DNA of 64,000 nt from Chrysochromulina tobinii (lineage: Eukaryota): the NCBI GenBank assembly GCA_001275005.1, contig JWZX01002881.1:1-64000 (forward strand). The letters are read 5' to 3'. The position numbers and the translations under genes are program-made. The notes beneath the pieces are model-generated. The model saw nothing but the letters and a program-made list of their open reading frames with translations, searched no databases and was not told the DNA's origin. Positions 25,544 to 58,637 of the stretch are shown piece after piece. Each line of letters starts with the position of its first letter. The stretch's first letter is position 1.

Positions 25544-26147
25544 TCAAGCCCAGCCTCGAGGGGGGGATACCCTAGGATACCCTATCGAGGGGGGGGATGC
25601 CCTAGAAGCACCTTTGAGGAGCTTTGCCTTCGCCCTTGCCTCCTTGGCACGGATCGCCGCTGCAATGGCCGGGTCCATCGATTTTGCCTTCGCCTCCAAC
25701 TTTGCCTCCGCATTCGCCCCCACCCTCGCCTCCACCCTCGCCTCCTCCCTCGCCTCCGCCGAACCCGCTGCCCCCGCCGCCGTTGTTGCTTGTGCCATGA
25801 ACTGTGGAAGCATCCGACTCCAGATCCCTGCGTCTGACTTGCCACTGCTCGTGCTCGTCGGTGGCGCGGCATGTATCGCTGCATGCATCGCTGCATGCAT
25901 CCCCGCGCTGCCACTGCTCGTCGGGGGCGCCCTCGACAGCGCCTTCGCCCTCGCCCTCGCCTCCTTCTCACTGATCGCCCTCGCCTCCTTCTCACTGATC
26001 GCGGCTCCACCAAACGCGGCTCCACTCGTAGACGCATCCCTAGCCGCCTCCACCTTCGCCATCACCTTCACCTTCTTGGCAAGGCTCGCTGCCGCAAAGT
26101 CTGTCGCCCGTGCTGCGGGTGACCTTGCGTTCGCTCCCTTCGGCGGC

Positions 26148-26203
<56 letters not shown>

Positions 26204-27118
26204 ATTGGCCTTCGCCGAGCAATCCGCGGGCGGCACGACCTTTGTTGACTGGTTTCGCCCGATGATGTAATAGACAGGGTTGTAGGCAAACGCGGAGTCC
26301 GGGCCTGCATTCGCCTCCGGTGCGAAGGCGCGCACCTCGGCCAACGGTATGCCATACCGGTACGCGGATGGCCGAGCTGTCGAGCGCAGCGGCATCGTTG
26401 CCAAATTAGGAGGCTTCATGCCGGGGTGAAGGTCCAGCCACTGACGTAAGGTGGACGCGGGGGCGCCGCCCTTGATGTCGGCAACGATCGTGTGCATGTT
26501 CTCGCCTTGCCGGCTCGCAATATTTCGGACGATGTCCACGAAGTCGATTTCGAGCCGCCTCGGCACATAGATGATCAGATCAGACCACATGTGCGTGCAG
26601 CGCGTCGTGTTCGTCTTTCGGTGGACCGAGCGGAACGGCAGCATGAGCTTGCCGTCCTCGTCGGGCGGCGGTGGAAGCGGCAGCGGCTTACGAAACACAA
26701 GGTCCGCGCGAGTGATGAACAACGCGGAGCGCGATCTCCACTCCGCCGGCCCAGTCTGATTCGCCCAAACGAGGGTGGCTACCAGGGTCTCAGTCTGAGT
26801 ACGATGGCGATACGTCTCCCTGATGCGCTCCTCAATAATTGCAGCGCGGAGCCCGCTTGCGCTCTTCGCTCGCTGCCAAGCGCTGTGCAGGTGAGAGGGC
26901 ATCACCACGTCGATGGCGAGGCCAACTCGCCATCCGAGGGTGCGTGCGGGCGCGATGACATTTTGCTGGAGAGACCGCAGTGCCTGGATCTGCTCATCGG
27001 GCGACGAGCTGACTCGTAGGGGCGCGCTCGGGTCTTGCGAGGCTCGTCCGCCACCGCGGAAGGCCAACCCGCGGATCACGATCAAGAGGATGTTCTGCAT
27101 GAGTACCCCTTGTTGCAT
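25544..27118 (-). CDS. Hypothetical protein with motifs similar to the 3040-4559 gene and an Ala-rich tail
   Basis: LLIVIRGLAFRGG ... LFITRADLVF, in an uninterrupted ORF. Confidence 0.55.
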
Positions 27119-27286: not shown

Positions 27287-30200
27287 TCACTTCTTGCCCT
27301 TCCCCTTGTTCCGTACCTTGATGGTGATGGGCGCAAAGTCGCAGTCGGGACGCCCACAAGCCGTGCAGTACTTGACGAGCGACGTCGACTCGGTCGCAGG
27401 GATTGCGTCCGAACGCTCCTTGGCACGCCGCGCACGCTCCTTCGCCTCGCGCAGCTTCGTCAACTGCTGCACGTTCGAGCCCTGCTTCTTGAGCATCTCG
27501 CCCACGCCGGCGTCGTCGACCCCGTACTTCTGCTTGAGGAAGTCTTTCGTTCCCTGCGGCCAGTCGCGCTTCCCGGTCATCATCTGCTCAATGTCGTCGA
27601 GCTCGCCATGCCAGCCTGAGCCCATCATCGCGTCGCTCACCCACAGGTCCTCGCCGTCGCCCTTCGCCTCCTCGTCCCCATCGCCCGCCTCCTCGCCGCC
27701 GCCCTTTTTCTCGCGCACGGTGCGTGTGAGGACGTTCGTGGTGGTGCGCACCACGGGCGCTCTCTCGTACATCTGATCCATCGGGGTCGGCTCATGCAAC
27801 GGACGCTCCTCCTCGTCGACCTCGTTGCATAAGTCACCCGACGACAGCCCGTCGTCGCCGCCGCCGCCGCTGCGACCGCCGCCGCTGCGACCGCCGCCGC
27901 TGCCGCTGCCGCTCGTCGAAGGTTCGTCAATCTCTTCAATCATCGAAGGTCCGTCAATCTCTTCAATGATCGCGCCGCCACCAGTCGAGCCAGCGGCCGG
28001 CGCGAGGTTCAACCACCCACCGCTGCTGCCGTTACCGCCAGTCGTGCGGCCGTAAGACGGTGGGTGCGAGCCACCGCCTCTGCCGCCGCCGCCACCATCG
28101 GCCGGTGGCCAGACGGGCGGCGGCTGACTGGCCGCGCCCACACCCTTGCTCCCGGCGTGCTTCTTGACCATCGCCCGCAGGCCTTCTTCATCAGCGCCTA
28201 TCAGCTCGTCCACCTTGACCTTCTTGACGAACGCCTGGAAGGTGGGCATGGCCCGCACGCCGCACGCGCGCGCCGTCTCCTGGTTCTCGTCCACGTCGAC
28301 CTTGATGAAGCACGCGTGCGGGAACTCGAGGGCGAGGGCTTCAAAAGTGGGGACGATTCTCTGGGACGGTTCGCACCACGTCGCTGTGAAGTCGACAAAG
28401 GTGGTGGTCGACGAGGCGGCGCTCTGTGCGAGGACGGCGTCGTATTCCGCCTTGGTGGCGGGCTGGCGTATGGGTGGCGAGCGCTGGCTCAGCGTCGGCT
28501 TCTGTGAAGCTGATCTCTCCTCCGCCGCCGCCCACTCGTCCGCAGTTTCGTCAAAGGGCGCGAGATCACGCACGGCGGCGTACAGATCGGCCACCTCGTA
28601 CACGCCGAGCAGCTTGGACGTCGGTTTGGCGGCGGCGCCGCCGCCCGCCGCCGCTGCCGCCGCCTTCACCTCCTTCATGCGCCGCGTCGCGCGCTTCTTG
28701 TACATGGTCGCGACGAGCGTGCCGACCGTGCGGCCGCACGCCCAAGCTGGCCCGAGGCCGCGCATTAGCTGTCGCATGCAAGGCTCGAGGGCGGCCGCCG
28801 CGTCGGGCGAGAGGCTGAGCTTCTCCTTGGCGACCATCGAGCTCGTCACCTGGGTGAGGGAGAGGGGGAGAGGGGGAGGGGGGATGGGGAGGGGGTTAGG
28901 CATGGGGTCAGGTTCGTCAGCCGTGGGTTAGGCATGGGGTCAGGTTCGGGTTCGGGCTTGCCCGTCACCTTGGCCGCAAGGCTCGCTGACCACACGGGGA
29001 AGTGGAGTGTCTTCGAGAAGCACGAGGCGAGCGTCGCGCTCGCGCCAAAGAGTTTGCCTGATGAGGGGGGCAATCGGCATGCACTTTTTCAGCGATGCAC
29101 ACTCAGCGATGCACTCAGCATGCAATCAGGTTGTCGCGTTCGCGCCAAAAAGGCTTGCCGATCTCGTCCTTGGTGCCAGCGACGATGACGACAAGCTTGC
29201 CTCGGTACTCTTCAGATAAGACGAGCTGCGACAGCGTGTCGCATACCTCCTTGTTGTACGATGCGCCGGCGCCGGCCCCCGATTCGGGCGCCATCCCGCC
29301 CGCATCGTCAATGAAGAGCACGCCCCCCAGCGCACTCTTGACGATCTCGGTCACCTGATGAGGGAGGCAATCAGCATGCACTCGGAGGCCATCAGCAATG
29401 CACTCAGAGATGCACTCAGCGAGGCAGTCAGAGGCCGAGCACTCTGAGGACGCTCGTTCACCTTGGCCTGCGTGCCGCCCAAGTACCGATCCTGCATCGT
29501 GCGCCCGCTCATCTTGACCACATTGTCGCTCGGGAGCAGCCCCACGTTCTTGAGGATGGACCCGAATCGGCAGGCGAGCGTCGCCTTACCCACGCCGGGC
29601 GCGCCGCAGAAGGCGAGGTGGCCGAGCATGCCGCGAGCGTCGCGCTCCTCCTGATGAGGGAGGCAATCAGATGCCATCAGAGGCCATCAGAGGCCATTCG
29701 AGGCCATCATAGAAGCCATTAGAGGCCACTAGAGGCAAATTAGACACAAGCAGACGCAGCAATCGCACGCAGACGCAAGCGGACGTACCTCCTTGGCAAG
29801 GCTGAGGCTCGCCTCGAGCTCATCAAAGTACTCGTGGATGAAATCGACGTCGACCAGGTCGTCGAGCGCCACGCGCACCTGTGGGGAAGGGGTGGAGGCG
29901 CCGCGGTGAGCACTTGCATGCCGATCCGAGTCGGTCGAGCCGCCACGTGGCGCACCTTGGAAAAGTCGGCCGGGTTCTTGTCAAAGTCCTCAGGCAGCAG
30001 CAGCGACTGGTTGACGCGCGTGCCGCCAGGGGGGGCTTCGCCGAGGTCCGCGGCGGCGCGCTCGGCGGCGAGGGTCTTCGTGAGGCGCGATTGCATCCGT
30101 TCTTTGGCGCGGGTGAGGGCGTTGTCGACCGAGCCCGCGTTGCCAAAGTTGGGCTTCATGCGCTCGCGAGCGATGATGGCGACGGCGTCCTCGGCGGTGG

Positions 30201-33200
30201 GCAGCGTGATCGAGAGACCGGCCGAACGAACCTGTGGGGAAGGGGTAGGCGCGCCGTGGTAAGCACTTCGCCCTTGATGTGTACGAGCGCGCCATGGTGA
30301 GCACTTGCATGCGCACCTTCTCCCTCAGGATGTGAACGAGCTGCGGGTCAGTGTAGTCGGCGAAGAGGAAGGCGTCCTCGGGCCGAAAGCGCCTCGCGAG
30401 CCCCGGGTTGGCATCGCGCAGCAGCGCGTTCACGTCGTCCTCGTAGCCGCACATGATGATCGCGATGTCCTCCCCGGGGGTACCTTGCACCTGATGAGGG
30501 GCGTCATCGGATGGCAATCAGAGGCGATCAGATGGCAATCCGTTCGTCATCAGATGGTCCTCAGATGGCAATCAGGGTACCTTTTGCACAATGGTATCGA
30601 CGACATTCGCGCAAAAGGAGTTGGACGAGCGCTTCGGGTTGAGGCCGTAGCACTCGTCGATCAGCAGTACCTGGTGAGCATCGTGGTGAGAGGGCGTCGT
30701 GGTGAGCATTTGCATGCGCTCGGCCTGTTCGCGCCGTGATGAGCATTTGCATGCGCTCGGCCTGTTCGCGCCGTGGTGAGCATTTGCATGCGCTCGGTCT
30801 GTTCGAGTCGTCGATGAGCCGCACCTTGCCTCGGCAAGCTTCGAGAAGCTCGACCGTCTTGCGCTCGCTCTCACCGACCGCAGAGCCCAAAAAGTCCGAG
30901 GGTCCCTTGACGACCACCTGATGAGGGAAGCCATCAAGGGAGGTCATCAGGGAGGTCATCAGGGAGGTCATCAGGGAGGTCATCAGGGAGGTCATCAGGG
31001 AGGTCATCAGGGAGGTCATCAAGGAGATCGCACCTCGCCGTTCGAGAGGAAGCCGAAACGCTTGAGGAGTCGCCCAAAGAGCTGTGGAAGGAGGGCCAAG
31101 CGCCGCGGTGAGCACTTGCATGCACGGTAGGGGTCCTGGGTTGAGCGCTCCGCGTACCTTGGCGACGGTCGTCTTGCCAGTGCCGGGCTTGCCGTAGAAG
31201 ATCCGATGGAGAGGGACATAGAGAGGCTTCTCGCCTCGAGCCTCGCGCTCCCAGTTGCCCAGCTGGAGGTGCATCAGCTCGCGCACCTGATGAGGGATGC
31301 AATCATATGCAATCAGATGCAATCAAGGGGTGCAATCAAGCTGGAGGTGCATGAGCTCGCGCACCTTGGCCTTCACCTCGTCGAGGCCGGTGAGTGTCTC
31401 TAGCTCCTTGAGCTCAGGCGAGTTGTCGAGCACCGGCTTGGCACCCTGATGAGGGGCGCAATCAAGAGGCGTCCTCAGAGTTCATCAGAGTGCTCATCAG
31501 TGGGATCATCAGCGCTCATCAGCAGGATCATTAGTGCTCATCAGTGGTATCATCAGTGCTCATCAGTGGCCTCCGTACCAGCGCATCCTCCCGCGAGATG
31601 GTCGTCGCCATCTCAGCGCTCGGCGTCTCGCCTCCGTCGATGAGCATCGAGAGGCGCTCCTCTTGTCGCTTGATAGCTTGCTCGATCTGATTGCGCACCT
31701 GATGAGGCAGCCAATCAGCATGCACTCAGCCACGCAGCATTACGAGGTTGAGAATCTGGCGGCAATCAAGGGTTGCAATCAAGGGGTGCAATCAAGAGGC
31801 GTCATCAGAGGTCATCAGAGGTTGAGGATCTGGCGGCGGCGCACCGCGCGCGCGTTGCCAAAGCCGCGCTGCCCCGCGCCGTAGGCGAGGCGCGAGGCGA
31901 CGATCGACGCGACCGACGGGCTTGCCTGATGAGGGGAGCAATCAGCATGCACTTTTTCAGCGATGCACACTCAGCGATGCACGCAGCATGCAATCAGGTT
32001 GTCGCGTTCGCGCCAAAAGAGCTTGCCGACTCGACGACCATCTTGCGGTCGCTCATCATCTTGTGATAGATGGCGCGCAGCTCGGGCTCGAGATAGTCCT
32101 CGAAGACCCACCTGATGAGGGGCGTAATCGGAGGTCATCAGTGGCAATCAGCTGGCAGGTAGCATGCACTCAGAGGCGCACTCACGTGTTTGGGAAGCGC
32201 GACGCGAGCCCCGGGTTGAACGAGAGTAACGTCTCGACTTCATCACGGTAGCCCGCAAGCACAACCGAGCACTCGCCACGCTTATCCTCCGCAAAGGTGA
32301 GCAGCAGGTTCATGATGTCGGCGCCGTCCTTGTTGTTCTTCGGGTCGAGCTGGTACACCTCGTCAATGAAGAGCACGCCGCCGTCGACCTGCTCGAGCAT
32401 CTTCTTGAACTCGTCCGCGCCGTCCCGGAGCAGATTACCGCCGGTGGTGCTCCGTATTTCGGAGCTCGAGCGCAGCTTGAAGTCGTGCAGGATCTTGGCC
32501 ATCAGACGCGACACCTCCGTCTTGCCCGTACCTGATGATAGAGGCCGTCAGGCGTCATTAGAGGCGTCATTAGAGGCAATCAGAGAGGCCACCAGGGGCC
32601 ATCATTAGAGGCCATCAAGGGCAATCAGAGGCCATCAGACGTGCCCGGGTTGCCGATGAAGACAAAGTGGCGGTTCACGTCGGCGGTAGCGTCCGCCGGC
32701 TTCAGGCTTGCAAGCTCGACGGAGTACGCGACGTTGAGCGCGTCGCGCTTGATGCGCTCGAGGCCGACCATCGCCATCAACTTGTCCATCGCGCTCGACT
32801 TAATCTCGGGGTGCTTGAGCTTGTACCTGATGAGGGAGGCCATCAGCCATCCTCAGAGGCCATCAGAGGCCATCAGAGGCCATCAGAGGCCATCAGAGGC
32901 CATCAGAGGCCATCAGTGGTCATCAGAGGCCATCAGAGGCCATCAGAGGTCATCAGAGGTCATCAGAGGCCATCAGAGGCCATCAGAGGCCATCAGAGGC
33001 CATCAGAGATCATCAGACGTACCGCTCCCACTGCGCCTTCGCCAGCGACGCGGATGCCGATTCGAGCGGATCGTCGTCGTCGTTCTCCATCAGCTTCTCG
33101 ACCGTATCCTTATTTGGGTCGAGCCAGAGCGCCGCCTCTGCCTCGAAGAGGGCGAACGTGCGCAGGTACAGCGATGCACGCAGTCGGTGCTCCTTGGCGG

Positions 33201-36200
33201 GCTTGAGCAGCTTGTGCGCGAGATAGCACCCGTAGAGTACGACGGGGTCGAAGGCGGCCTGCGGCATCGGCGTCTCGAAGGTGCGCAGGTACACCTCGAT
33301 GCGTCGACGCGGCTCGACTGGGTCCCAGCCCTGAGGAAGGAGGCCATCAGGCGTCATCAGGCGTCATGACAGCTCATCGATCGACATCAGAGCTCATCAG
33401 AGCTCATCCGGCTCATCAGTGGCAATCAAGGTACCTCCTTGAGCTGCGAGAGTGCGGAGTAGATTTGGCAATCAGTGGCAATCAGTGGCCATCAGTGGCA
33501 ATCAAGGTACCTCCTTGAGCTGCGAGAGTGCGGAGTAGATCTGGCCGCGCGGATCCGCCGTCTGGTCGCAGAGCTCGTACCTGATGAGGGAGGCAATCAG
33601 AAGGGTCATGGCATGGTACACGGCGGCAATCAGAGGATCCTCCGCGGCAATCAGAGGCAATCAGAGGCAATCAGACGTACGCCTTCTGGTACTCCTTGCG
33701 CAGTAGATGGCACACGCCCTGGCGCAGCTGCGCGTCGGCGCTCTTGAACTTGTCGTCGATCCGAGACGTCGCGTCCGCACCAAACGAGGCCTCGAGGGCG
33801 GTGTACATGGCGCGCAACGCGATGGGCGGCAGCAGTCGCGCCGCCTCGAGCGTTGGGCGCATGGCGCGCGCGCGGGCTGCTCGCGGCAACGGCTGTGCCT
33901 CGCCCTCGGACGACGGCGTAACCACCAAGGGCGGCCGGAGGTCAGAGGTCGAGGCGGGAGGGGCGGTGGCCTCCGCCCCCGCCCCCGCCGATGCCGCCGC
34001 CGCCGCCGCCGACCCCGCCGCCGCCAATGACGACGACGACGCGGACGATGGCATCGGTGCAGACGCATTCTTAGCGGCTGCGGGCGTGCGCTCCATGAGG
34101 AGAGAATCGAGCTCATCGACGGCCGCACGGCGCTCGGCAGAGGCGGCTGCCTCGGCCGCCCGCTCAGCCGCCTGCTGCTCCTTTTGCAGCCGTGCGGCGG
34201 CTAGGCGCGCATTGACGACGTCGAGTGCCTCGACGAGCACCTGATGAGGGGTGCCATCACGAGGTGTCATCAGAGGTCATCAGAGGTCATCAGAGGTCAT
34301 CAGGGGTCATCAGAGGGCCGTGTAGATCGGTCCGAGCGCCGTAACGAGCACCATGTCACCGCTGACCGGTGTGAAGTGCTTCACGTGGAGCTCCGTCGCC
34401 AAATGATACACCTTCTCACCGACGCCATCGGCCACATGCCCGCCGGAGCGCCCGGCAAGATCGATAGCCTTCAGAATGCGCGTGGGCAGCCCTGATGAGG
34501 AAGGTCATTAGAGGTCATAGAAGCCAAATGAGAGGCAAGTAGAGGTCATGAGAGGCGAACAGCTTGCGTACCGCACCCCTCCGCCTCGGCTTGGAATCAG
34601 AGGTCATCAGAGGCACTCATATGTCATCGGAGGCAATCAGCGTACCGCACCCCTCCGCCTCGGCTTGGAATCAGAGGTCATCAGTGGCACTCATATGTCA
34701 TCGGAGGCAATCAGCGTACCGCACTCCTCCGCCTCGGCTTGGAATCGCTGCCCTCGCTCACCACTGGCCGAGAGGAGTTTGAGGAGGCCTTTGAGTGCGA
34801 TGAGCAGCGTAGGCATCACGTACGCCATGTCGGAGCTCGAGCCTTCGCCCTCGCCGCTCACCCCGCCGCTCACCTGAGGAGGGAGGCCATCAAGGCAGCT
34901 GATGAGGGCGGCCATCAAGGCAGCTGAGGAGGGAGACCATCAAGGCAGCTGATGAGGGAGGCCATCAAGGCAGCTGAGGAGGGAGGCCATCAAGGCAGCT
35001 CACTGAGATCATCCTTGCAAAGAGTTCGACCGGCTTGATCTTATTGATTGCCGAGAGCATGAGCAGGCCCATCGGCAGCAACCCCTGCTTGCCCTTCACC
35101 TCGACCTGCACCTGCGTCTTGTCATCGCTCAATTTCGTCACCTTCCCAATGTCGGAGGCAGACTCAAACGGCGCGAGCACCGTTGGGGCCTTCTCGCCCT
35201 GAGGCTTGTCCGAGAGCATGACCTTGTCGCCGACCTTGGTCGACTTGACCTTATGCGCCTCCTCCCACTTGGTAAGAGACAGGCACAGGCTCTCGACCTC
35301 ACCATCTCCCGCGCAATTCTCGAGCGCGACCGCGAGAACACCGCCCGCCGCGGCGCGCACCGTCGTCGGACGCGTCTCGTCGATCGAGATCGCGTAGATC
35401 GGTCCTGATGAAGGAGATTATCAGGATATTATGATACTACGTACTATGTCATCAGAGGTCATCAATAGGCCATCAATAGGCCATCAGAGCACCGTACACC
35501 TCCGGGTCGAAGGCGAGCTCCGCCCGTAATCAGAGGTCATCAGAGGTCATCAGAGGTCATCAGCGCACCGTACACCTCCGGGTCGAAGGCGAGCTCCGCC
35601 CGATGCTTCTCAAAATGGCAGAGCGTCCTCGCGAGCAGTACGAGCGCCAGCTTGCACACGGGCTCATCGTCGAGCGCCGCCGCGTCGCAAAAGTGCTTCA
35701 CGATGCTCCCGTTCTCCTTCATCCGGTTGAGGACCACCGCGCCGGCCGTCTCGCCGCTCGCCGTCGCTGCTGCCGCGGCGGCGGTGTCGCCCGTCGACTC
35801 CGGTTCGTCATCCGTATTAGGCAAACCCATGCCTGTGCCTTCGGCCTCGGTGACCGTGTTGAGCACGTCGAGCGGCCGCAGCAGATGGGCATGTCGCGCC
35901 GGCGGCGTCGCCGGATCACCCTGTTTGGCTTTGAGGTACTCGGCAATGCGCTTGGTCGCCTGCTCCACCTGATGAGGGAGGCAATCAGTCGCGCTCAGCT
36001 CGCAATCAGGAGACCATCAAGAGGCGACGGCGCTCGATCGCCTGCTCCACCTGATGAGCTAGGCAATCATCGTCATCAGAGGCAATCATCGTCATCAGAG
36101 GCAATGCACCTCGCTTGGCAGCCACTTGGCCACGTTGTCGCACAGAGCTTGCACCGGCGCCATGCCACCCAGCGTCATCGCCTTGATCAGGTCGAGCACC

Positions 36201-37640
36201 ACATCGCGTAGCGCCGCCTCGAGCGCCTCCATCCCCTTAGCTTCCTTCTCCTTGTCGCGTAGGGGCTCGTCCGTCACCGCGAGGAGGAGCATCACGATGT
36301 CCTAGACGACTTCTCGCTCGAGAAAGGCGCCGAGGGCGGTCGCCTGCTCGGCCGTGGCGGCGGCGCCGAGTTGGGCGGCCTGTTTCTTGTCGATGCGTGC
36401 GGCGAGCGCATGCAAGAGAGTACCGGCCTCGACGAGGTACCTGAATGAGGGAGACTATCCGAGGTCATCAGAGACCATCCGAGGCAATTAGAGGTCATCC
36501 GAGGCCATCGAGGCCATCCGAGGTCATCCGAGGCAATGGAGGCCATCAGAGGCCACATCGGAGGCCATTACTAGGGGATTGGAGGCCATCAGAGGTCATT
36601 AAGAGGCCATTAAGAGGCCATTAAGAGGCCATCAGAGGCCATTAAGAGGGTATTAAGAGGGGATCGGAGGTGATTGGAGGCCAGCCGACGTACTGGAGGG
36701 TGGCTGGCGAGAGCTTCTTCGTGCCCAGCATCGCCTTCGACTGCAGCGAGCTCGAGAGCGAGAAGGTGCACTGTGGATCGATCTGCAGGGGCGGCCGCAG
36801 CGAGGGCGATGCGCGCAGCATCTTCGCAAGCGTTCCGAAGAGGCCAGTGAGGTTCCACTTGGGGAGGAGCTCGCAGAGAGGGTTCTTCTTCTCTGGATCG
36901 AGCGCTTGGCTCATATTGGCCCGTGAGCGTTGCACGCTGCTCTCGCCCCACGTGATGGCGAGCGACAGCACTGGCCCCATCGATTCGGCAGCTCGAAAAT
37001 CGATGCTCGTCGAGATCATCGAGATCGTCGCGTCGGCTGTGTCGCCGCCGCCGTCGGTGCCGCTCTCGGCGAGGGCACGGCAGATGCGCTCGCACGCGCT
37101 GAAAACCTGCAGCACGCTCATGCCGCGCATGAAGATGTCGGTGAGCGTCTCGGCACGCGCCTTTTCGACGCCCTCAAACGGCGGCTCCGCAAGCAACGAG
37201 CGATCCGAGCTCTTCTTCTTCTGCTCATTCTCCATCTTGCGAGCACGTATCGTGCTGAGCAGCGCCGCGCACTCGTCAAAGAGGACCTCGAAGCTCTGGC
37301 GCGCGCCCTCCATGGCCTCCATCAGCGTCGCTCCCTCCGCCGAGCGCAAGAAGCGTCCCCACAGCTCGCACACCTGATGAGGGACGCCATCAGCATGCAC
37401 TCAGAGAGGCAATCAACGGCAATCGAAGAGGCCATCCAGAAGCGTCCCCACAGCTCGCACACCGAATCCAGCGTGCTCACGTAGCTCGCAAGCGTCGCGA
37501 GCGCCGTGACTGCATGCAGCTGCACCCGCTCCGTGCGCATCGGATGGGAGAGCACCCACGAGATGACGCGCAGCGACGGCACGAGGATTTCGTCATTGGG
37601 CGAGTCATCGGCGTGGAACACGGACTCCATAAGAGTCCTC
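27287..37640 (-). CDS. Intron-rich gene: helical N-terminal region, three CbbX/SpoVK-type AAA+ modules and a thioredoxin domain; an in-frame TAG at 36302-36304 may mean it is partly pseudogenised
   Basis: AAA1: GNPG|TGKT, GGVLFIDEVY, NPGLASRFP. AAA2: GKPGTGKT, LLIDECY, NPGLARRF. AAA3: GAPGVGKA, GGVLFIDDAG. Trx: VDFTATWCEPS...MPTF. Roughly 20 or more introns inferred. Confidence 0.8.
29058..29158 (-). mobile_element. 101-nt GC-AG intron, putative source copy
   Basis: About 5 differences from 31926-32026. Its 5' ~26 nt duplicate its own downstream exon. Confidence 0.65.
31926..32026 (-). mobile_element. 101-nt GC-AG intron, putative transposed copy
   Basis: Near-identical to 29058-29158. It carries the exon tag of the 29057 site rather than its own. 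Confidence 0.65.
32835..33017 (-). repeat. Intronic 9-10-bp microsatellite (ctctgatggc)n, representative of many similar tracts
   Basis: Related tracts at 6790-6995, 29660-29735, 30930-31022, 34260-34315 and 36460-36660. Confidence 0.9.
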
Positions 37641-40106
37641 CAAGAGTGCTCGTACTTCGAGAGCAGCTCACCCTGCTTGATGCCGATGTGGTCAATCTTG
37701 GAGCTCTCGAGTTCCTGAACGGCGTCCATGCCGTCCTCACCGTAGAGGAACTCGAGCACCTTGCCGGCGTTACGCACGGTGTCGTCGTATTTGACGATGA
37801 TGTCCTCCATCGCCTTCACGAGACGGCGCTGGATGTAGCCCGTCTCCGCCGTCTTGACCTTGTTGAGCACTTGGTTGACCGAATGCTCGAACGACTCCAT
37901 CATCGTCTTGCCGGGCTGGCACTCGAGCTCGGCCGACTGGGCGCGCTCGACGAGCGCCTTCACCTCGCGCTTGGACGCCTCGATGGTGGCGACGATGTCG
38001 TCCAACGTCTTCGCATCAGCGATCGTGTCACCGATCCCGATCGAGTACGAGCGCTGCAAAATCCTGTGGTTCACGACGCGCTGATGGCAGCCCAAAAAAA
38101 CGCGGGCTGCCCTGCGGCCCGTGCTCGAGCCAGATCGTGTGCACGATCGCACCGCCGCTCGTGCCAAGCATCTTCTTGTCGAGCATGCCTGCGAGCAGTT
38201 CGCCGCCGTCGGGTGAGAAGACAATCAGAGGCCATCATCGGTCGGATGCAATCAGAAGCCACCAGAGGCCATCAGAAGCGAGCATGCCTGCCAGCAACTC
38301 GCCGCCGTTGATGATGACCTTCGTGTCGGTGGGCGACATATCGTCTTTCTCGTCGTCGGGGCGACCGTTGGATGTGCCTGAGAGGTAGATGTTCGGCAAA
38401 AAGAGACCCATGATCTGCTTGCCCGTCCAGAGCGGCTTGGGCTTGAGGATGGCGGGCGCGGGCAGCTTACCCGAGAACGAGTCGAGGTGCAGGATCAGAT
38501 TCATCACGAGGTCCTTCTCGAGAAGCAGTCGGGTCGCGTGAAGGCACGCAAGCCGAGGAGGGTATCCTGCACGATGCCCATGACGAGCTTGTTCGACTGT
38601 GGCGACACGATGCAGCGCGGCGTGAGCATGATCTCGGAGCACTCGGCGCGCGTCTCGTGCGTCTGCAGCACGTGCGTGTTCATCTTGTCGCGTCAAAGTC
38701 GACATTGTACAGCGAGGTACAGCTGAGATTCATCCGGAAGGTGGAGTAGGGCATGATCTTGATGCGGTGGCCCATGATCGACATTTTGTGCAGCGACGGC
38801 TGCCGGTTGAACATGAAGATGTCGCCGTCTTGCACATGCCGCTCCACCTTGTACCCGGGCTGCAGCGCCTTTTGGACGTTTGGCTTCGACAAGCCGAGAC
38901 GCAGACCGTCGTTGCGGATGATGTAGCGTGCGCCGGGCAGCGTCGACGGCCCATTTTCAAAGAGCTCCTGCAGCTTGGCGATGTTGAAGGGCGTGACCAC
39001 CTCCGGGTACGTGAGCGTGCGTGCGACCGTGCGCGGAACGCCCACCTCATCGATGGCGAGATTCGGGTCGGGCGTGATGACCGAGCGAGCGCAGTAGTCA
39101 ACTCGCTTGCCCATGAGGTTGCCGCGGATGCGGCCCGCTTTCCCTTTGAGGCGCTGCGAGATGGACTTGAGCGGCCGACCCGAGCGTGTGGTCGCGGGCA
39201 TCATGCTCACGGAATCTGATTCTCCACCATCATCGCGATGCGGTACTGGAGCAGCCGCGTCGTCTGCAGCTGGATGTGGTTGGGCGCTCCATTCTTCTCG
39301 AGCTCTCGCAACGACTTATTGACGCGCACGATGTCCTGGAGCATGAGAGTGATGTCATCCTCGGCGCGCCCGCCCGTCGAGTCCATCTAGACCGACGGGC
39401 GCACGTGCGGCGGCGGGATCGGCAGCACGGTGAGCACCATCCAGTCGGGCCGCGCGTAAATTGGATTGAAGCCGAGCCGCAACGCATCCGAGTCGGTGAT
39501 GCCCTTGAGAATGCTATGCGCGCGCTCGGGCTGCACTTCCATCTTGCGCTCGTGGTCGTCCGTAGACTCCTTAAACTCGGCCGCGATCGTCAGCCCGTCG
39601 CGCTTGAAGTTCGGTTGCGGCGCCGAGCACGACCAGCACGTCTTCTTCGTCTTCGCAAAGTCCATCACGGCGCGCAGCCGCTGCGCCGGGTTCTTCTTGC
39701 GCGTGGCAGCGGCGAGGCGTACCCCGTCGGGGTTTGCCTTGCCGTCTTCGGCTGGCTGGTCGCCAAGGATGGCCGAGCACGAGAAGCAAACGCAGCGCAG
39801 CACCTTGAGCGTCGTGTTGAGGAAGGAGACGTGGTACATGGGCTTCGTGAGCTCCAAGTGCCCGAAGTGACCCGGGCACTCAGAGGAGTCCATGCCGCAG
39901 CTCGCGCAGTTCAGGAGGCGGTCGATGGCGCCGAGCGCCGGGTCCATGAGCCCGCCAGGGATGGGCTTGCCATTCTCAAAGGTGCGGTCAGTGACGATAT
40001 TGCACACCGACGACGCCTTCAGCTCCTCGGGACCGAGGATGCCAAACTGGACGCGGCGCACCTTGCGCACGCCCGCCTCCGAGTAGCGGAAGCTCACGCC
40101 GCTCAT
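37640..40106 (-). pseudogene. RPB1: Disrupted N-terminal half of the RNA polymerase II largest subunit
   Basis: [66 protein letters not shown] and YGEDG motifs. TAG at 39387-39389, frameshifts near 39205, 38692, 38517 and 38105, internal deletion at 37858/37859. No C-terminal half or CTD. Confidence 0.9.
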
Positions 40107-40336
40107 GGTGGCGGCCGACTCCGACGCTGCCGGCGGCGCGGCGCCTTGCACAGGCAGGCAGGCAGTGGCAGGGCGCCAGCGCGCACCAGCGCAGAGTGGC
40201 TCATAGGGAGACTCGCAAAGACGTGTCGAGGCCCACGACGGCGTCTTCGCGCGAACCCCGGTTCGACTGGCCAAGTGTGGAGGATGTGTGAACAAGTAAG
40301 GACGAACTGTTATTCACGACGGGCATCGGCTCGGAG

Positions 40337-41947
40337 ATGCCGCTATCCCTCCTCGTGCTCGCGAGCCACGCGCTGTACGAGCGCGACCCGCACATCGTCC
40401 AGCTGACCACCTCCAACTTCCAATCCGTGACCGAGCGCGGCACCATTGCGGTCGAATTTTTCGCGCCGTGGTGCGGCCACTGCCAGCACTTTGCTCCGAT
40501 CTGGAGCGCAACGGCAGCCAGCGCGTGCGCAGCGGCGCCGGCGCTGCTGCTCGCCGGGCTCGACTGCGTCGCCAACGACGCGACCTGCAGGAAGATGCAG
40601 ATCACATCTTTTCCGACGATCCGCCTCTTTGTGCCGGGCCGAACGCCAGCACTCGGCCAGAATCTCAACAAGTGCAAAAATGGCTGCAGCTCGCCACGAG
40701 AAATGATCCAGGCCATTTTGGGCGCGCTGCCGCCGCAGCCGACGCCCGACCTGCAGGAGCTCATCGATCAAGGGGCGGAGCGGGTCCTGAACCGCTCGCG
40801 GGCGTGCGCTACGCAGTGTCGCACGTCGCAGTGCCGCACGAGCTTCGCGTCCGCCCAGCAGCAGCAGCAGCAGCAGCAGCTCGGGTATACGAGGGTGCTC
40901 CGACGCGGCGAGGCACCGAGTGAGCTCGCGCTCCGCCCATTGCCCATCGACGATGCCGCCGGCGCGGCCCTCTACTCGTTCCGACATGAGCTCTACACCG
41001 TTGCTGCCCCGCTCGGCTCGGAACGCCATGAGGTAATAGAGAGTTGGCTGACGCTGCTCGCCAAAGCGCTGCCAGGCGCCTCGCGCCGCGCCGCCCTGGC
41101 GCGCCTCGCGCACGACGCGCGCACCGTCACGACGCCTGGGGCGTGGCAGGCGCTCCAGCAGCCTCCGCTCGCGATGGCGCTGCTTCCACAGCCTGCATGG
41201 ACGCCGTGGCTGAGCGGCCACACGCCCCGTTGGCTCGCCTGCCGTGGCTGGTCGACCGAGAGCCGCGGCTACCCATGCGGGCTCTGGACCCTCTTCCACA
41301 CGCTGCTCGCCCACAGCGACGACCCGACCGCAGCGCTCCACGCCATTGTGGGATACGTGCATCACTTTTTCGGGTGCCAGGCGTGCCGCGAGCACTTTGG
41401 TCAACTCGTTGCATCCACCAACGACCCGCCCCCCGATGGCGTTCATGCGCCGGACGCGGGGCCGGGGGGCGCACAGCTCTGGCTTTGGCGCGCCCACAAT
41501 GCTGTCAACCGCCGGCTCAACCAGAGCAGCGCGTCCGACGTACTCTCGTTGGGACTCCTCAAAGTGGATTGGCCCGATCAGGGGGCATGTCCGGGCTGCC
41601 GTGACGTGGCTGGCCGTTGGCGCAAGAATGCGGTGCTGCGCTATCTGCGCGCCACGTATTGCCGAGACAGCCTCTCGCCGTGCGCACCCTTACCTGCGGG
41701 CAAGGGGGCAGACCGCGGGAGCGGCATGGGCGGCGGCCGTGCTGGAGGGCGCGGCATGGCAACGAACGTCGAGACCTCGGAGACGTTACGGGAGACCTGG
41801 ATGCTCAACACGGTAGGCTATGCCCTCGTGCTCGCAGCCGTCCTCTTCCTCGTCGTGTCCCGTGCACGTTACCAGCGCCGCCGCATCCCGGAGCCCGTCA
41901 ACGTAGTATGCACGTACTCTCAACTGCGCCCGGCGAGAGAGGACTAA
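40337..41947 (+). CDS. QSOX: Quiescin sulfhydryl oxidase (Trx plus Erv/ALR) with a C-terminal TM helix
   Basis: Signal peptide, FFAPWCGHC, RGYPCGLWTLFH, FFGCQACREHF, LWLWRAHNAVNRRL and WP..CPGC. Confidence 0.92.
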   Translation: MPLSLLVLASHALYERDPHIVQLTTSNFQSVTERGTIAVEFFAPWCGHCQHFAPIWSATAASACAAAPALLLAGLDCVANDATCRKMQITSFPTIRLFVPGRTPALGQNLNKCKNGCSSPREMIQAILGALPPQPTPDLQELIDQGAERVLNRSRACATQCRTSQCRTSFASAQQQQQQQQLGYTRVLRRGEAPSELALRPLPIDDAAGAALYSFRHELYTVAAPLGSERHEVIESWLTLLAKALPGASRRAALARLAHDARTVTTPGAWQALQQPPLAMALLPQPAWTPWLSGHTPRWLACRGWSTESRGYPCGLWTLFHTLLAHSDDPTAALHAIVGYVHHFFGCQACREHFGQLVASTNDPPPDGVHAPDAGPGGAQLWLWRAHNAVNRRLNQSSASDVLSLGLLKVDWPDQGACPGCRDVAGRWRKNAVLRYLRATYCRDSLSPCAPLPAGKGADRGSGMGGGRAGGRGMATNVETSETLRETWMLNTVGYALVLAAVLFLVVSRARYQRRRIPEPVNVVCTYSQLRPARED

Positions 41948-56023: not shown

Positions 56024-57592
56024 CTACGGCTTGATCAGGAAAGAGTGCTGCTCCGGCACAAACAGATTGTGCAGGCCCGTATTCACCTCAATCGGTGCGG
56101 GCAGGCGCGCCAGCTCCCTCAGGTTCCTCGCGTCGAGGACGAGCAGCCAGCTCCGCTCCTGCGCGATCTCATTCGCAGGTATGAGCAGAACGCCTTCGTC
56201 CTCGGCGGCGCGATCGCCCGGGTGAGGCACCATCTGCGGCTCGCTCGCGCTGTAGCCATGGAGTGCCCACGTCACGACCTCACCGCTCGCCGTGTCCACC
56301 TTGACGACATCATTCGGCGTGAGGGCGTCGTCGCTCTCCGCATTCAACTCCCTCTGCGGGAATCGCAGCCCCCACACGTAGCGGTGCGGCCGCTGCAAGA
56401 CCTTTGGGCTACAGTGTGCGAACTCATGCACCTCGGAGCTCAGCATCATCCGCGTCGCTCGCTGTGCATGCGGCGAGATGACGAAGCGGCACAAGCCCCG
56501 TGAGGTCACAGACGCGCCCCCGTCAAAGTCGTCGCCGTTGGCCCAAGTCACATCAGCGACGATCGTCCCATCTTCGGCGTCGTACACGTTGATCGAATGG
56601 AAGATGTGCGCCGCTTCGCGAGCGCCCTCCACCATGCACGTTGCGGCGTGCGTGAGGTGGCCATCCAAATGCTTCTGGAGCACCTCGAAGCTGAGCGGCG
56701 CGTCGCGCTCGAATGGAAAGCCCGCGAAGAACCCGTGTGGGAAGACGTTCAGAGATTGGTCGTATGCCATGCGCTTGGACGAAACAATCAGGACGACGTA
56801 CGACTTCGTTTCGAGCATCGAGTGCATATACGGCACACGTTGGAGTAGCGGCACACTCGCCCGCTGCAAATAGCCAAAGGCGGCGAGTGGCTGCTCGTAG
56901 ATCTTATCTAGCGGCAGCGCGTGGCGCTCCTTGGCCCTGTAGACGACGTAGCCACTCTCGAAGCTTGGGATACAGCCATATCTTGTTTGGCTAGCCATGC
57001 GCAGATAGACGCCGGCATGGAGGTCGCTTCGGGTCGTTGGCTCCTCGAAATTGTGCGAGGCGAGGAAGACGAGGCCGGAATCTGACCGGATATTTTCAGA
57101 GCCCGGCACCATCTGTCGCAACGGTGGCATCGTCTCCAGCTGGTCGCCGAGCACAACAAGCTGAGACGTAGGGTTCTCGGGGCTCGCGGACGCGAGGCCG
57201 TCACTCATGCGCAGAAAGTTGACGTTGTGGTTCTCATACGCGCCCACATCTGACTGGCTGTTGCTCTTGCCTACAAAGACCCAGTTGCGCACGGAGCCCT
57301 CCGAGTCGACGTAGGCTTGGTGGTGCCGTGTCTCAAGGAAGCGATTGGAGAAGCTGAACTCTGAGCTCGGGGAGTTGAGGTGCCAGGCAGCGACGTGTGC
57401 CAGCCCATCAAGAAGGTTTGTGCCTTTCACAAAAGCACCACCGCACTGCCGAAAGAGAGTGCCAACCACATATTCCGGCACAGCACCCTGTGGGATGATG
57501 GGCTCCCGAGCGTGCTCCTTTCGCACGTCGCGGTAGCCAAAGGCTGTCGCGGCTTGCGCGGGCTTGACGGCTCGGCTTGCGCTGTTGCCCAT
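56024..57592 (-). CDS. Carotenoid cleavage oxygenase (RPE65/CCD family)
   Basis: GAVPEYVVGTLFR, DGLAHV and NRFLET. Four candidate Fe-ligand His (ASH, YMH, IFH, GLH). SEPQMVP and EDEGVLL. Confidence 0.88.
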   Translation of the reverse strand: MGNSASRAVKPAQAATAFGYRDVRKEHAREPIIPQGAVPEYVVGTLFRQCGGAFVKGTNLLDGLAHVAAWHLNSPSSEFSFSNRFLETRHHQAYVDSEGSVRNWVFVGKSNSQSDVGAYENHNVNFLRMSDGLASASPENPTSQLVVLGDQLETMPPLRQMVPGSENIRSDSGLVFLASHNFEEPTTRSDLHAGVYLRMASQTRYGCIPSFESGYVVYRAKERHALPLDKIYEQPLAAFGYLQRASVPLLQRVPYMHSMLETKSYVVLIVSSKRMAYDQSLNVFPHGFFAGFPFERDAPLSFEVLQKHLDGHLTHAATCMVEGAREAAHIFHSINVYDAEDGTIVADVTWANGDDFDGGASVTSRGLCRFVISPHAQRATRMMLSSEVHEFAHCSPKVLQRPHRYVWGLRFPQRELNAESDDALTPNDVVKVDTASGEVVTWALHGYSASEPQMVPHPGDRAAEDEGVLLIPANEIAQERSWLLVLDARNLRELARLPAPIEVNTGLHNLFVPEQHSFLIKP

Positions 57593-58637
57593 GGGAGAAG
57601 TTATGTGGGGAGCTCTCGCTCGAGCACGTCCTGGTCGCGGTGGACGGTTTGGTCGTGATCTGCAACAGTCTGCTCAAAGGCTGCAACTCGCGGCACACCA
57701 GATGAAAAAGGAAATCTCGAATTTTCTCTAATTTGGAAACGGAAAATTAATGCCGGAAACTTGGGAGTAGATTCCCATGCGGGCTCGGCTTCCGACGCAA
57801 GGCGGGCTCGAGCACGCCTGACTGACATGCTCAATTCAATCCAACGAGCGAGAGCAATTGCGGGGTTTTGCACACGAGTAATTGGCCCGGCGTTACTGGC
57901 GGGGCTGGGGGGCTCCATTTGGTTTACCATTTGGTGTCGGGGGGGGGGAATCGGTTGGGGCTGGTCAAGCCTGGTCCAAGTGTCGAACAGCGAACAGGCG
58001 ATCAGTTGCGGAGCACGCGCAGCACAAGGCCGACCGGGACTTGAATCCGGAGTTAAATCCGGAGCCCTCGGCGAACCCAGCTTGCATGCCGTGTAGAGGG
58101 CCCAGCGTGTTGACATGGTTCCTCATCTCGGACGGGGCGAAGGATGAAAGAGGTTCTAAGTCGTCATACACTGGACACACACTCTTCGCTCCGCGGCGGA
58201 AACTCCGCGGCGCGGACTTACCGGGACGGCGCTTGGCGTAACCTAACGCGCACAATGCGACCGGGACCGGTTTACCGACTCGCAGGGACCTCTGCATGGA
58301 CCTCTGCTCGGACATCGTGTAGGCCGGGGAGATCGGTGGTCCCGCACACGAACCCCACACACCCCCGTATCTGAGGTTCGTACACTGGCATGTATCGCTT
58401 ATGAGTTATGAGTTCAGAGTTGTGTGCGCCGCTCAAGCGGAAGCGGACTGTCAACCGAACTTGTATGAGATGTGTACCGAACGGCGAACATGACGGCGAA
58501 CGCCAGCCCGGAGTTCCCGATGCTGTGAATAATACCTCCCGCGAATGGCGAATCCAAATGGTCGTCCACAAATACGTTCAGTTACGCGGCCGTGATTAAA
58601 TAACGCGTGAAAGACTTTAAGTGATGTGTTATAATAA

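Follow-up and report, generated by a model that had tools for sequence, protein, structure and literature searches.

An in-frame fusion of a broken RPB1 5′-half duplicate to a triple-AAA+ ATPase gene in Chrysochromulina tobinii

Partial gene duplication can generate chimeric transcribed pseudogenes, in which the 5′ duplicate of one gene is joined to another gene, transcribed, and left to decay neutrally. The locus described here, in a 64,000-nucleotide stretch of the C. tobinii genome (contig JWZX01002881.1; hereafter the window), is unlike typical cases in that the duplicated gene encodes a polymerase subunit that is essential and single-copy, and in that the acceptor also contains an older capture that has been retained. 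The acceptor is an ATPase that resembles the SpoVK/CbbX/EccA clade, in which, according to the available text of PMC11513918 (our source for the clade signatures), variable N-terminal domains likely recruit substrates and eukaryotic members carry an SF1 RNA helicase. As in the clade described there, the GY signature and an Asn before the arginine finger are found in modules 1 and 2; unlike it, the ATPase has three modules per chain, the third degenerate, a head that belongs to no known family and is not a helicase, and an integrated thioredoxin. In plant NLRs, the available text of PMC4759884 places thioredoxin among the listed integrated domains and lost catalytic activity within the decoy model. 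The ATPase is like those NLRs in having a host domain fused into a P-loop protein, but it is built on a classical AAA+ scaffold with no NB-ARC/STAND and no LRRs, and effector recognition or an immune function would follow only by analogy. A host-derived integrated domain kept in frame is found in the thioredoxin, not in RPB1. A literature search, mostly of titles and abstract starts, returned nothing on an RPB1-ATPase fusion or on such haptophyte ATPases, and no paper in it held the identifiers of the gene model KOO26202.1.

A DNA duplicate of the RPB1 5′ half lies fused before a triple-AAA+ gene and is now broken; we think it probable that the fused locus exists as two copies (A and B) and that the window was stitched from three loci. 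The features of the RPB1 part and its flank are as follows.

40337..41947, plus strand: intact QSOX-type sulfhydryl oxidase, thioredoxin plus Erv1/Alr (Pfam), 536 aa
40107..40242, minus strand: 5′ leader, part of the same duplication as RPB1; beyond 40242 the fusion copy (L001, L002) diverges into unrelated sequence
37646..40106, minus strand: remnant of RPB1 that corresponds to residues 1-891 of P0145 (C. parva RPB1) and lacks 717-820
39387..39389, minus strand: nonsense TAG at RPB1 codon 240 (CAG in the intact gene)
38108..39210, minus strand: four frameshifts (+2 at 39209-39210, -1 at 38691, -1 at 38522, +1 at 38108)
38189..38287, minus strand: RPB1 intron, GC-AG, 99 nt; RNA joints skip these 99 nt, and the intron is also in intact-type RPB1 genes
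37858..37859, minus strand: in-frame 104-codon deletion joining NQVLNK to VKTAETG

On the minus strand, RPB1 residues 1-891 are joined in frame to the ATPase gene at 37646/37645 (KYEH/SWRTL), with no repeat at the joint. The initial annotation had noticed RPB1 similarity running without a stop into unrelated sequence near 37640, and this is confirmed: the frame is open from 38089 through YGEDGMDAV...LSKYEH/SWRTLMESVF with zero stops, and the similarity stops exactly at 37646, where in both RNA runs examined a loose contig end goes on as intact RPB1 (NINSPHYGRE). The annotation had also asked whether any reads cross the junction. Contigs span it in four of the four runs examined, two of DNA (X1 and X2, crossing 37467-37700 with zero mismatch) and two of spliced RNA (X3 and X5), as do L001 and L002, and the chimera therefore stands. 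The splicing at 37374-37462 towards the AAA exons that had been proposed is visible in the RNA contigs of X3 and X5, from which that intron is removed; L001, a spliced contig of 5080 nt, lacks the RPB1 intron and the first seven ATPase introns, matching our model. Ten database proteins, of two sequence types, contain the junction. The 18 runs with the fusion are all labelled mixed culture, date from 2018-2019, and may be one campaign; the window itself may derive from one of them. Three freshwater runs from 2024 contained almost none of the sequence words, which speaks in neither direction. KOO26202.1 (C. tobinii; Ctob_000166, hypothetical protein, partial, 1484 aa) is an automatic gene model of the fusion of RPB1 with the ATPase head; it differs from the window in that the stop and frameshifts are skipped as short gaps and in that it breaks off ahead of the AAA modules, and no interpretation accompanies it.

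The ATPase model has 26 introns (23 with GT and three with GC donors) and counts 2352 codons between the junction and its stop at 27287-27289.

36302..36304, minus strand: internal stop TAG, the only one in the window's ATPase frame; open (Ser) in the second copy
33046..37630, minus strand: lineage-specific, largely helical head, about 1060 aa from the candidate start ATG at 37630 (MESVF)
35067..35249, minus strand: SH3-like beta insert, weak candidate; absent from relative P0158
31693..32826, minus strand: AAA module 1, motifs intact (GNPGTGKT, LFIDE, AGY, NPGLASRF, GNARAVR)
30100..31445, minus strand: AAA module 2, motifs intact except the sensor-2 Arg (GNAGSV)
28724..29878, minus strand: AAA module 3, degenerate (GKAT, LFIDD, no GY, no arginine finger)
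28133..28471, minus strand: integrated thioredoxin, 113 aa, likely copied from the 5′ part of the Trx-UBA gene of the alga
27287..28132, minus strand: low-complexity linker, helical segment, and C-terminal Cys motif (YCTACGRPDC) to the stop

The initial annotation had described three CbbX-type AAA+ modules. There are three, and they score best against SpoVK, CbbX, and EccA; however, scored as single exons they fall far under the cut-offs (for CbbX proper, TIGR02880, the best is 69.7 bits against 459, in a chain of three modules), and by NCBIfam cut-offs the ATPase is neither CbbX nor SpoVK. The GY signature in sensor 1 (AGY, CGY) and the Asn before the arginine finger (NPGLASRF, NPGLARRF) occur in modules 1 and 2 and not in module 3, which is predicted to be inactive; the sensor-2 arginine is present in modules 1 and 3 and is Gly in module 2. 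The ESM Atlas returned generic AAA clusters for P0221. The head has 13 relatives among 1.84 billion representatives and no family, and no relatives were found in prokaryotic and viral collections. HEAT/ARM-like clusters in the ESM Atlas, with scores under 0.9, offer a lead that it is possibly HEAT/ARM-like; its AlphaFold model (pLDDT 44) is too weak for use. No Pfam helicase match, as the SF1 helicase of a ZNFX1-type helicase-triple AAA+ protein would give, was found in the head exons scanned or in P0186. The beta insert has a match at E=0.4 and none at E<=0.001, with SH3 in most rows, and an AlphaFold model (pLDDT 60) that is too weak. Among stored matches, the best to the full triplet are P0249 and P0303 (Logan), at 35-36% over about 700 aa and in register. 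Both share a Cys-containing tail with the window ATPase but differ from it in having another head, made of ankyrin repeats, no thioredoxin, and canonical Walker A in all three modules.

We observed two versions of the ATPase sequence. Over 8 exons, 17 synonymous and 28 nonsynonymous changes separate the version in L002 from that in the window, and the L002 version also has a stop and frameshifts; at 10 sites compared with the two closest outgroups, five are window-like, one is L002-like, and four are uninformative. C. tobin is described as haploid in the available text of PMC4580454. At the window's TAG, P0152 and P0186 read EQEVVSDIV. All 12 of the full-length last-exon proteins aligned reach the same stop with in-frame indels only; these alleles come from 15 of 39 listed cluster members and are called proteins, which favours open frames. 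The open frame of copy B was pieced together from the window's 3′ part, P0152, and P0326, and was never seen whole. Met 37630, encoded by an in-frame ATG 15 nt past the junction, is a candidate start; its context is weak, 42 upstream ATGs precede it in L001, and the unfused gene was not found. P0168, whose exon 2 is 88% identical and which starts at MESVF, might be an unfused relative; near-identical fused-type alleles are also called from MESVF. P0143 terminates four residues short of the junction, and thus one allele closes the RPB1 frame there.

These observations bear on whether the ATPase is still a gene. The RPB1 duplicate may have replaced its promoter and first exon and so killed it, which would make both copies pseudogenes, with B not yet broken. 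The four runs contain no other 5′ end for 37505-37625, truncated or rearranged gene pieces are common (P0122, P0153, P0156, P0157, P0161), and module 3 and the thioredoxin motif are degenerate, all as this reading would have it. However, about 1.8 kb of exons in copy A contain a stop and no fewer than three frame breaks, whereas about 6 kb of the window version are free of them; splicing of the window-type 3′ part is seen in the RNA-derived P0319 (99% identical to residues 1495-1806, at module 2); and the last-exon alleles remain open. We therefore consider the loss of both copies unlikely.

The thioredoxin (Pfam PF00085, E=2.6e-18) is 77-79% identical to the alga's Trx-UBA with no indel in 113 aa, and it groups with Chrysochromulina-type Trx-UBA at 100/100 in an 8-row tree. 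The donor start codon is now ATA. In place of the catalytic dithiol WCGPC, the window and all 12 full-length last-exon proteins aligned have WCEPS, so that the resolving Cys is lost and the nucleophilic Cys kept. A test of whether the domain is under constraint gave changes at 7 of 56 invariant and 14 of 57 variable columns (p=0.15, not significant). Judged from its sequence, the domain is likely an older capture of the alga's own Trx-UBA gene whose reading frame was kept. What is new is that an ATPase related to the SpoVK/CbbX clade has likely captured a host gene's 5′ part on two occasions. A broader proposal is that haptophyte triple-AAA+ ATPases form an integrated-domain system outside the NLRs and that the present gene repeatedly picks up 5′ parts of its host's housekeeping genes to serve as baits or substrate traps, with the thioredoxin a fixed integration, the SH3-like insert perhaps another, and RPB1 a recent lost trial. 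We regard this as unlikely; the thioredoxin may have an integrated-domain role.

The RPB1 part begins at an ATG at 40106 and has Pfam matches to Rpb1_1, _2, _3, and _5. A functional RPB1 has an open frame through domains 1-7 and the CTD and an intact NADFDGD motif; in the remnant the frame meets the stop at codon 240 and the frameshifts and ends at 891, and the catalytic motif region is damaged: the motif itself contains A468V and a frameshift, and P465L and E474K lie next to it. P0139 and P0147 terminate at residue 239. The possibility that the frameshifts are sequencing errors was rejected: the last three occur independently in L002 and the first in L001. A full-length fusion protein cannot be produced, and the RPB1 part is likely non-coding debris. 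Against intact-type RPB1, 578 codons contain 22 synonymous and 25 nonsynonymous changes. The resulting pN/pS of 0.35 is compatible (p=0.23) with the 0.5 expected for one neutral and one constrained lineage; taken pairwise it rejects omega=1 (p=0.0004), leaving room for some early constraint. Changed columns include 15 of 369 conserved and 14 of 418 others (p=0.71). The remnant thus appears to decay as if unconstrained, with substitutions that ignore conservation, and the codon-240 stop, which seems common to diverged alleles, suggests that the RPB1 frame died early.

The initial annotation had correctly seen a decaying chimera formed with an RPB1 duplicate (the stop, frameshifts, and deletion all attest to it), but its suggestion of a once-functional polymerase decoy finds no support, although a decoy function during a short early period is conceivable. 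In its fullest form, that idea holds that the fusion was once selected, with RPB1 an integrated bait, since lost, on an ATPase guarding host proteins, and that the thioredoxin may still be a bait. The joint and three adjoining indels are in frame, with all four frameshifts lying from 38108 upstream, and the junction occurs in two sequence types; the ATPase gene has retained an older domain of host origin whose active site is altered, relatives carry other heads or inserts (for instance ankyrin repeats; in P0249, module 1 encloses a weak Tudor-like match), and giant viruses are reported to infect Chrysochromulina. Yet two of those indels are 3-nt events near the junction, and because the GGC loss among them is a repeat slip, the independent frame events reduce to the junction and the long deletion, a coincidence that we estimate at about 1 in 9. 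Given also the lack of constraint, the codon-240 stop in diverged alleles, the absence of an open full-fusion allele among the database proteins examined, and the fact that defence evidence for this ATPase is nil, past selection of the fusion is distinctly unlikely.

The donor gene is matched by the C. parva RNA polymerase II largest subunit (EP00900 P000749, P0145, 1725 aa), which includes the CTD and to which the remnant is 94-99% identical per aligned block; compared with it, the remnant is missing residues 717-820 and the whole part beyond 891 with the CTD, and its active site is changed. By these alignments, the RPB1 part derives from the Pol II gene of the alga itself, with about 5% divergence at silent sites. 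It arose by duplication at the DNA level and is not the retrocopy that had been suspected, because intact-type genes carry the same intron: P0138 reads into it and P0144 begins just behind it (both intact-type genomic RPB1, not same-strain DNA). The initial annotation was right that the RPB1 part has a single visible intron, and such a low number (one in 2.4 kb, where the ATPase part has 26), together with a duplicated block that begins only about 136 nt upstream of the ATG, could point to a retrocopy or a giant-virus source. However, native RPB1 is intron-poor here (P0135 has no introns), the 5′ half was retained while the 3′ half is gone, and the junction has no A-tract. A viral origin is excluded by the per-block identity to the host subunit, and a 35-nt RPB1 probe had zero exact matches in viral contigs. 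Either source is thus very improbable.

Although the surrounding assembly is probably a mosaic of paralogs, the repeat-free junction, bridged by DNA and RNA contigs and present in JGI, ENA, Logan, and NCBI records in two sequence types, makes an assembly artefact barely credible. The chimera of about 12.8 kb that had been proposed is real, but as written the sequence over this span probably combines three loci in a mosaic: the intact RPB1 locus, the decayed fusion copy, and an open-frame ATPase copy. The QSOX gene lies head to head with RPB1 and is probably the flank of the intact locus, not of the fusion copy; the stretch from about 39500 to 40106 plus the flank likewise matches the intact locus and not the fusion copy. 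At 61 of 63 positions the upstream frame agrees with intact P0135, whereas the flank of L002 is different. About 37 nt of the leader (40162-40199) are missing from the fusion copy in L001 and L002, and the joint 40161-40200 is seen in DNA runs X1 and X2. The window, L001, and L002 each alternate intact-type and decayed-type RPB1 in differing blocks. In X1, the QSOX flank (depth 75) and the intact-type letter at 39883 (73) stand at single-unit depth, compared with 144 for the decayed type, contig depth being a poor measure of copy number. KOO26202.1 has the same 5′ and 3′ types as the window, and so the window could be a true haplotype.

Our preferred reading, a fused and then duplicated locus, would run as follows. 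A duplicate of the alga's RPB1 5′ half was joined in frame, likely by chance, 15 nt before the likely start codon of the triple-AAA+ gene, and the joined unit came to be spliced as a single RNA whose RPB1 part is likely debris. The RPB1 frame would have died at codon 240 before the fused locus duplicated into copies A and B. Copy A, broken throughout, would be the source of the long spliced RNA; in copy B, an ATPase frame of about 2350 aa from Met 37630 is likely still open; and the window would stitch both to the intact RPB1 locus. By analogy with the clade, the ATPase may be a substrate-remodelling motor with two live modules and one dead, the head and captured thioredoxin being putative substrate-recruiting parts.

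The locus clearly shows, and allows one to date, the rise and death of a chimeric gene. It also has practical implications, as in the public C. tobinii model KOO26202.1 a broken paralog appears as a protein containing RPB1, and assemblies from short reads blend this paralog with the real RPB1 and can mislead RPB1 phylogenies. The lasting interest is the ATPase, a member of an unstudied eukaryotic triple-AAA+ family, whose gene holds one old retained and one young failed host capture, both from the donor's 5′ end. Should the retained thioredoxin turn out to be a bait, sensing by integrated domains would also occur in algae, on a classical AAA+ scaffold.

The region forms a single long minus-strand unit in which a partial RPB1 gene reads into an ATPase gene:

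40106, minus strand: RPB1 start (Pfam Rpb1 domains 1, 2, 3 and 5 matched)
36302-36304, minus strand: sole internal stop of the 26-intron model, counted from the junction

As the initial annotation described, the frame holds no stop from 38089 as RPB1 gives way to unrelated sequence; the model extends to a stop at 27287-27289, 2352 codons from the junction. A 33-nt junction probe retrieved two metagenome contigs, one spliced (L001) and one genomic (L002). L001 starts upstream of the RPB1 ATG, is spliced at the RPB1 intron and at ATPase introns 1 to 7, and retains both stops and the first frameshift. The stretch is present in 18 of the 21 runs listed (12 RNA), all 18 labelled mixed culture and perhaps from one campaign. 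In an alignment of contigs from four runs over 36900-40500, DNA contigs cover 37467-37700 with zero differences, and RNA contigs of 2467 nt and 2633 nt cross the junction with intron 37374-37462 spliced out. Both RNA runs contain a loose end at 37646 that leads into intact RPB1, which fixes the breakpoint there. Ten of the proteins retrieved also cross the junction; eight have the window's sequence type, the other two (ENA, Logan) a second one, and the C. tobinii record KOO26202.1 is an automatic gene model of the fusion. The junction is real, and the chimera first proposed, with spliced RNA over its join, is bridged by all of these sources. The in-frame join had a one-in-three chance, and selection is not needed to explain it. 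Literature searches listed no account of the locus.

The RPB1 part is a DNA-level duplicate of the host gene. Its protein cluster includes C. parva RPB1 with CTD. One protein (P0138) is 99.5% identical to C. parva RPB1 for 609 residues before it runs into the intron that the remnant also has, and another (P0144) begins directly behind that intron and equals residues 613-1725 exactly; therefore, intact-type RPB1 genes carry the intron. Because they share it and P0135 is an RPB1 without any intron, scarce introns are native to RPB1 here and are no sign of retroposition, which removes the basis for calling this part a retrocopy. About 100 nt of leader are common to the fusion copy and the intact locus; beyond this the flanks differ. 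The Chrysochromulina RPB1 alleles P0135, P0138, P0124 and P0002 show an apparent intron presence/absence polymorphism (no intron, an intron at ELLAG or an intron near HGPQ, as read from gene-call breaks). Head to head with RPB1, 230 bp away, lies an intact, single-exon sulfhydryl oxidase gene (QSOX, 40337-41947, plus strand); the intergenic stretch probably serves the native locus as a bidirectional promoter.

The remnant carries the following changes:

Lesions: codon 240 is a stop; there are four frameshifts; residues 717-820 are missing
Active-site changes: P465L, A468V, E474K

Intact-type sequence sits in different blocks of the window, L001 and L002, making block-wise comparison possible. 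Over 578 codons, remnant and intact-type RPB1 differ by 22 synonymous and 25 nonsynonymous changes (pN/pS 0.35), compatible (p=0.23) with the 0.5 expected for one neutral and one constrained lineage; neutrality of both lineages was rejected (p=0.0004). The remnant's 29 substitutions are indifferent to conservation: 15 hit the 369 conserved columns and 14 the remaining 418 (p=0.71). The RPB1 part is decaying, as had been suspected, and does so without constraint; the idea of a polymerase decoy mounted on the ATPase fails for this part. The codon-240 stop seems old because P0139 and P0147 likewise stop after residue 239, and one of the two has three private differences. A full fusion protein is impossible from any version seen, and we infer that the RPB1 frame died early. 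ATPase translation would start at Met 37630, upstream of which L001 has 42 ATGs.

The window itself is a probable mosaic. Over the first 239 RPB1 codons it encodes the intact protein, and the frame upstream agrees with that of intact P0135 in 61 of 63 positions; L001 and L002, by contrast, have eight substitutions and another flank. Rough depths in DNA run X1 are 75 for the QSOX flank, 73 for the intact-type letter at 39883 and 144 for the decayed type. Downstream, window and L002 are the same between about 39070 and 34950 and diverge after that, with 17 synonymous and 28 nonsynonymous changes over eight exons, where a stop and frameshifts lie on the L002 side. Of 10 sites compared, two outgroups (P0215, P0221) support the window's version at 5 and that of L002 at 1; P0152 is open where the window has its internal stop, and the longest contig behind it has the same length as that behind P0326, a match to the window's last exon. 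C. tobin is described as haploid (PMC4580454). That the window is a true haplotype is rather unlikely, even with KOO26202.1 showing the same end types. The mosaic would comprise three components: an intact RPB1 locus together with two further copies, A (the fusion, broken) and B (open). The flank that really lies upstream of the fusion copy, L002 8000-15495, contains tandem repeats of the GTATGAGA type, a small gene with introns that ends ~700 nt upstream, and an 809-aa open frame with a weak p25-alpha match. Further truncated or rearranged ATPase-head pieces are joined to unrelated sequence (P0122, P0153, P0156, P0157, P0161). The ATPase locus seems prone to partial duplication.

Just downstream of the ATPase gene lies a single-exon 518-aa ORF with an Ala-rich tail and no family assigned (25544-27100, minus strand), a second, diverged version of which occurs at 26713-27059 in DNA runs. 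A 549-codon open frame (56027-57673, minus strand) presumably resembles a carotenoid oxygenase family protein. Many introns in 28850-38287 are made of short GATGGCCTCT-like repeats, CATCAG ends 18 of 26 ATPase introns, and 9 of 27 introns contain a 10-34 nt copy of flanking exon that often supplies the donor site; these features suggest intron birth by local duplication. They differ from the introners of a marine Chrysochromulina sp., for which bioRxiv 10.1101/2022.06.06.494994 reports 4-bp duplications.

Each AAA module scores highest with SpoVK, CbbX and EccA models, far under cut-off. Modules 1 and 2 have the GY and Asn signatures that characterize this clade (PMC11513918); module 3 has GKAT and DD, without GY or an arginine finger. 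The same paper describes variable, likely substrate-recruiting heads. The head here has 13 relatives in 1.84 billion representatives, 11 of them at least 85% identical, and the best full-triplet relatives among the matches retrieved carry an ankyrin head. These are two 1790-aa Logan proteins (P0249, P0303) with a Cys/His-rich start, ankyrin repeats and three AAA modules, the first of which holds an insert weakly resembling Tudor. The ATPase may act as a motor.

When the last exon was used as a query, free Trx-UBA (thioredoxin-UBA) proteins came up. The exon's 113-residue thioredoxin shares 77-79% identity with five Trx-UBA proteins of Chrysochromulina type (assigned by closeness) and 51-56% with two more distant ones; it groups with the former at 100/100, on a branch of 0.26 versus about 0.04. 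It begins at the donor's start codon, now ATA, and has zero indels, and each of the 12 full-length alleles in the alignment (from a 39-member cluster, 15 listed) has WCEPS in place of WCGPC. The thioredoxin thus appears to be a second, older host-gene capture by the ATPase gene. The RPB1 remnant shows five frame-breaking events per ~30 missense changes; at this rate 21 thioredoxin changes predict three or four, so zero is unlikely (about 3%, an estimate). The frame was probably kept by selection, though perhaps just for the sake of the tail; a test for constraint on the 113-residue fold gave no significant signal (p=0.15, substitutions by column conservation). A decoy of this kind would resemble the integrated domains of NLRs, among which thioredoxin occurs (PMC4759884), and the captured thioredoxin might be such a decoy.
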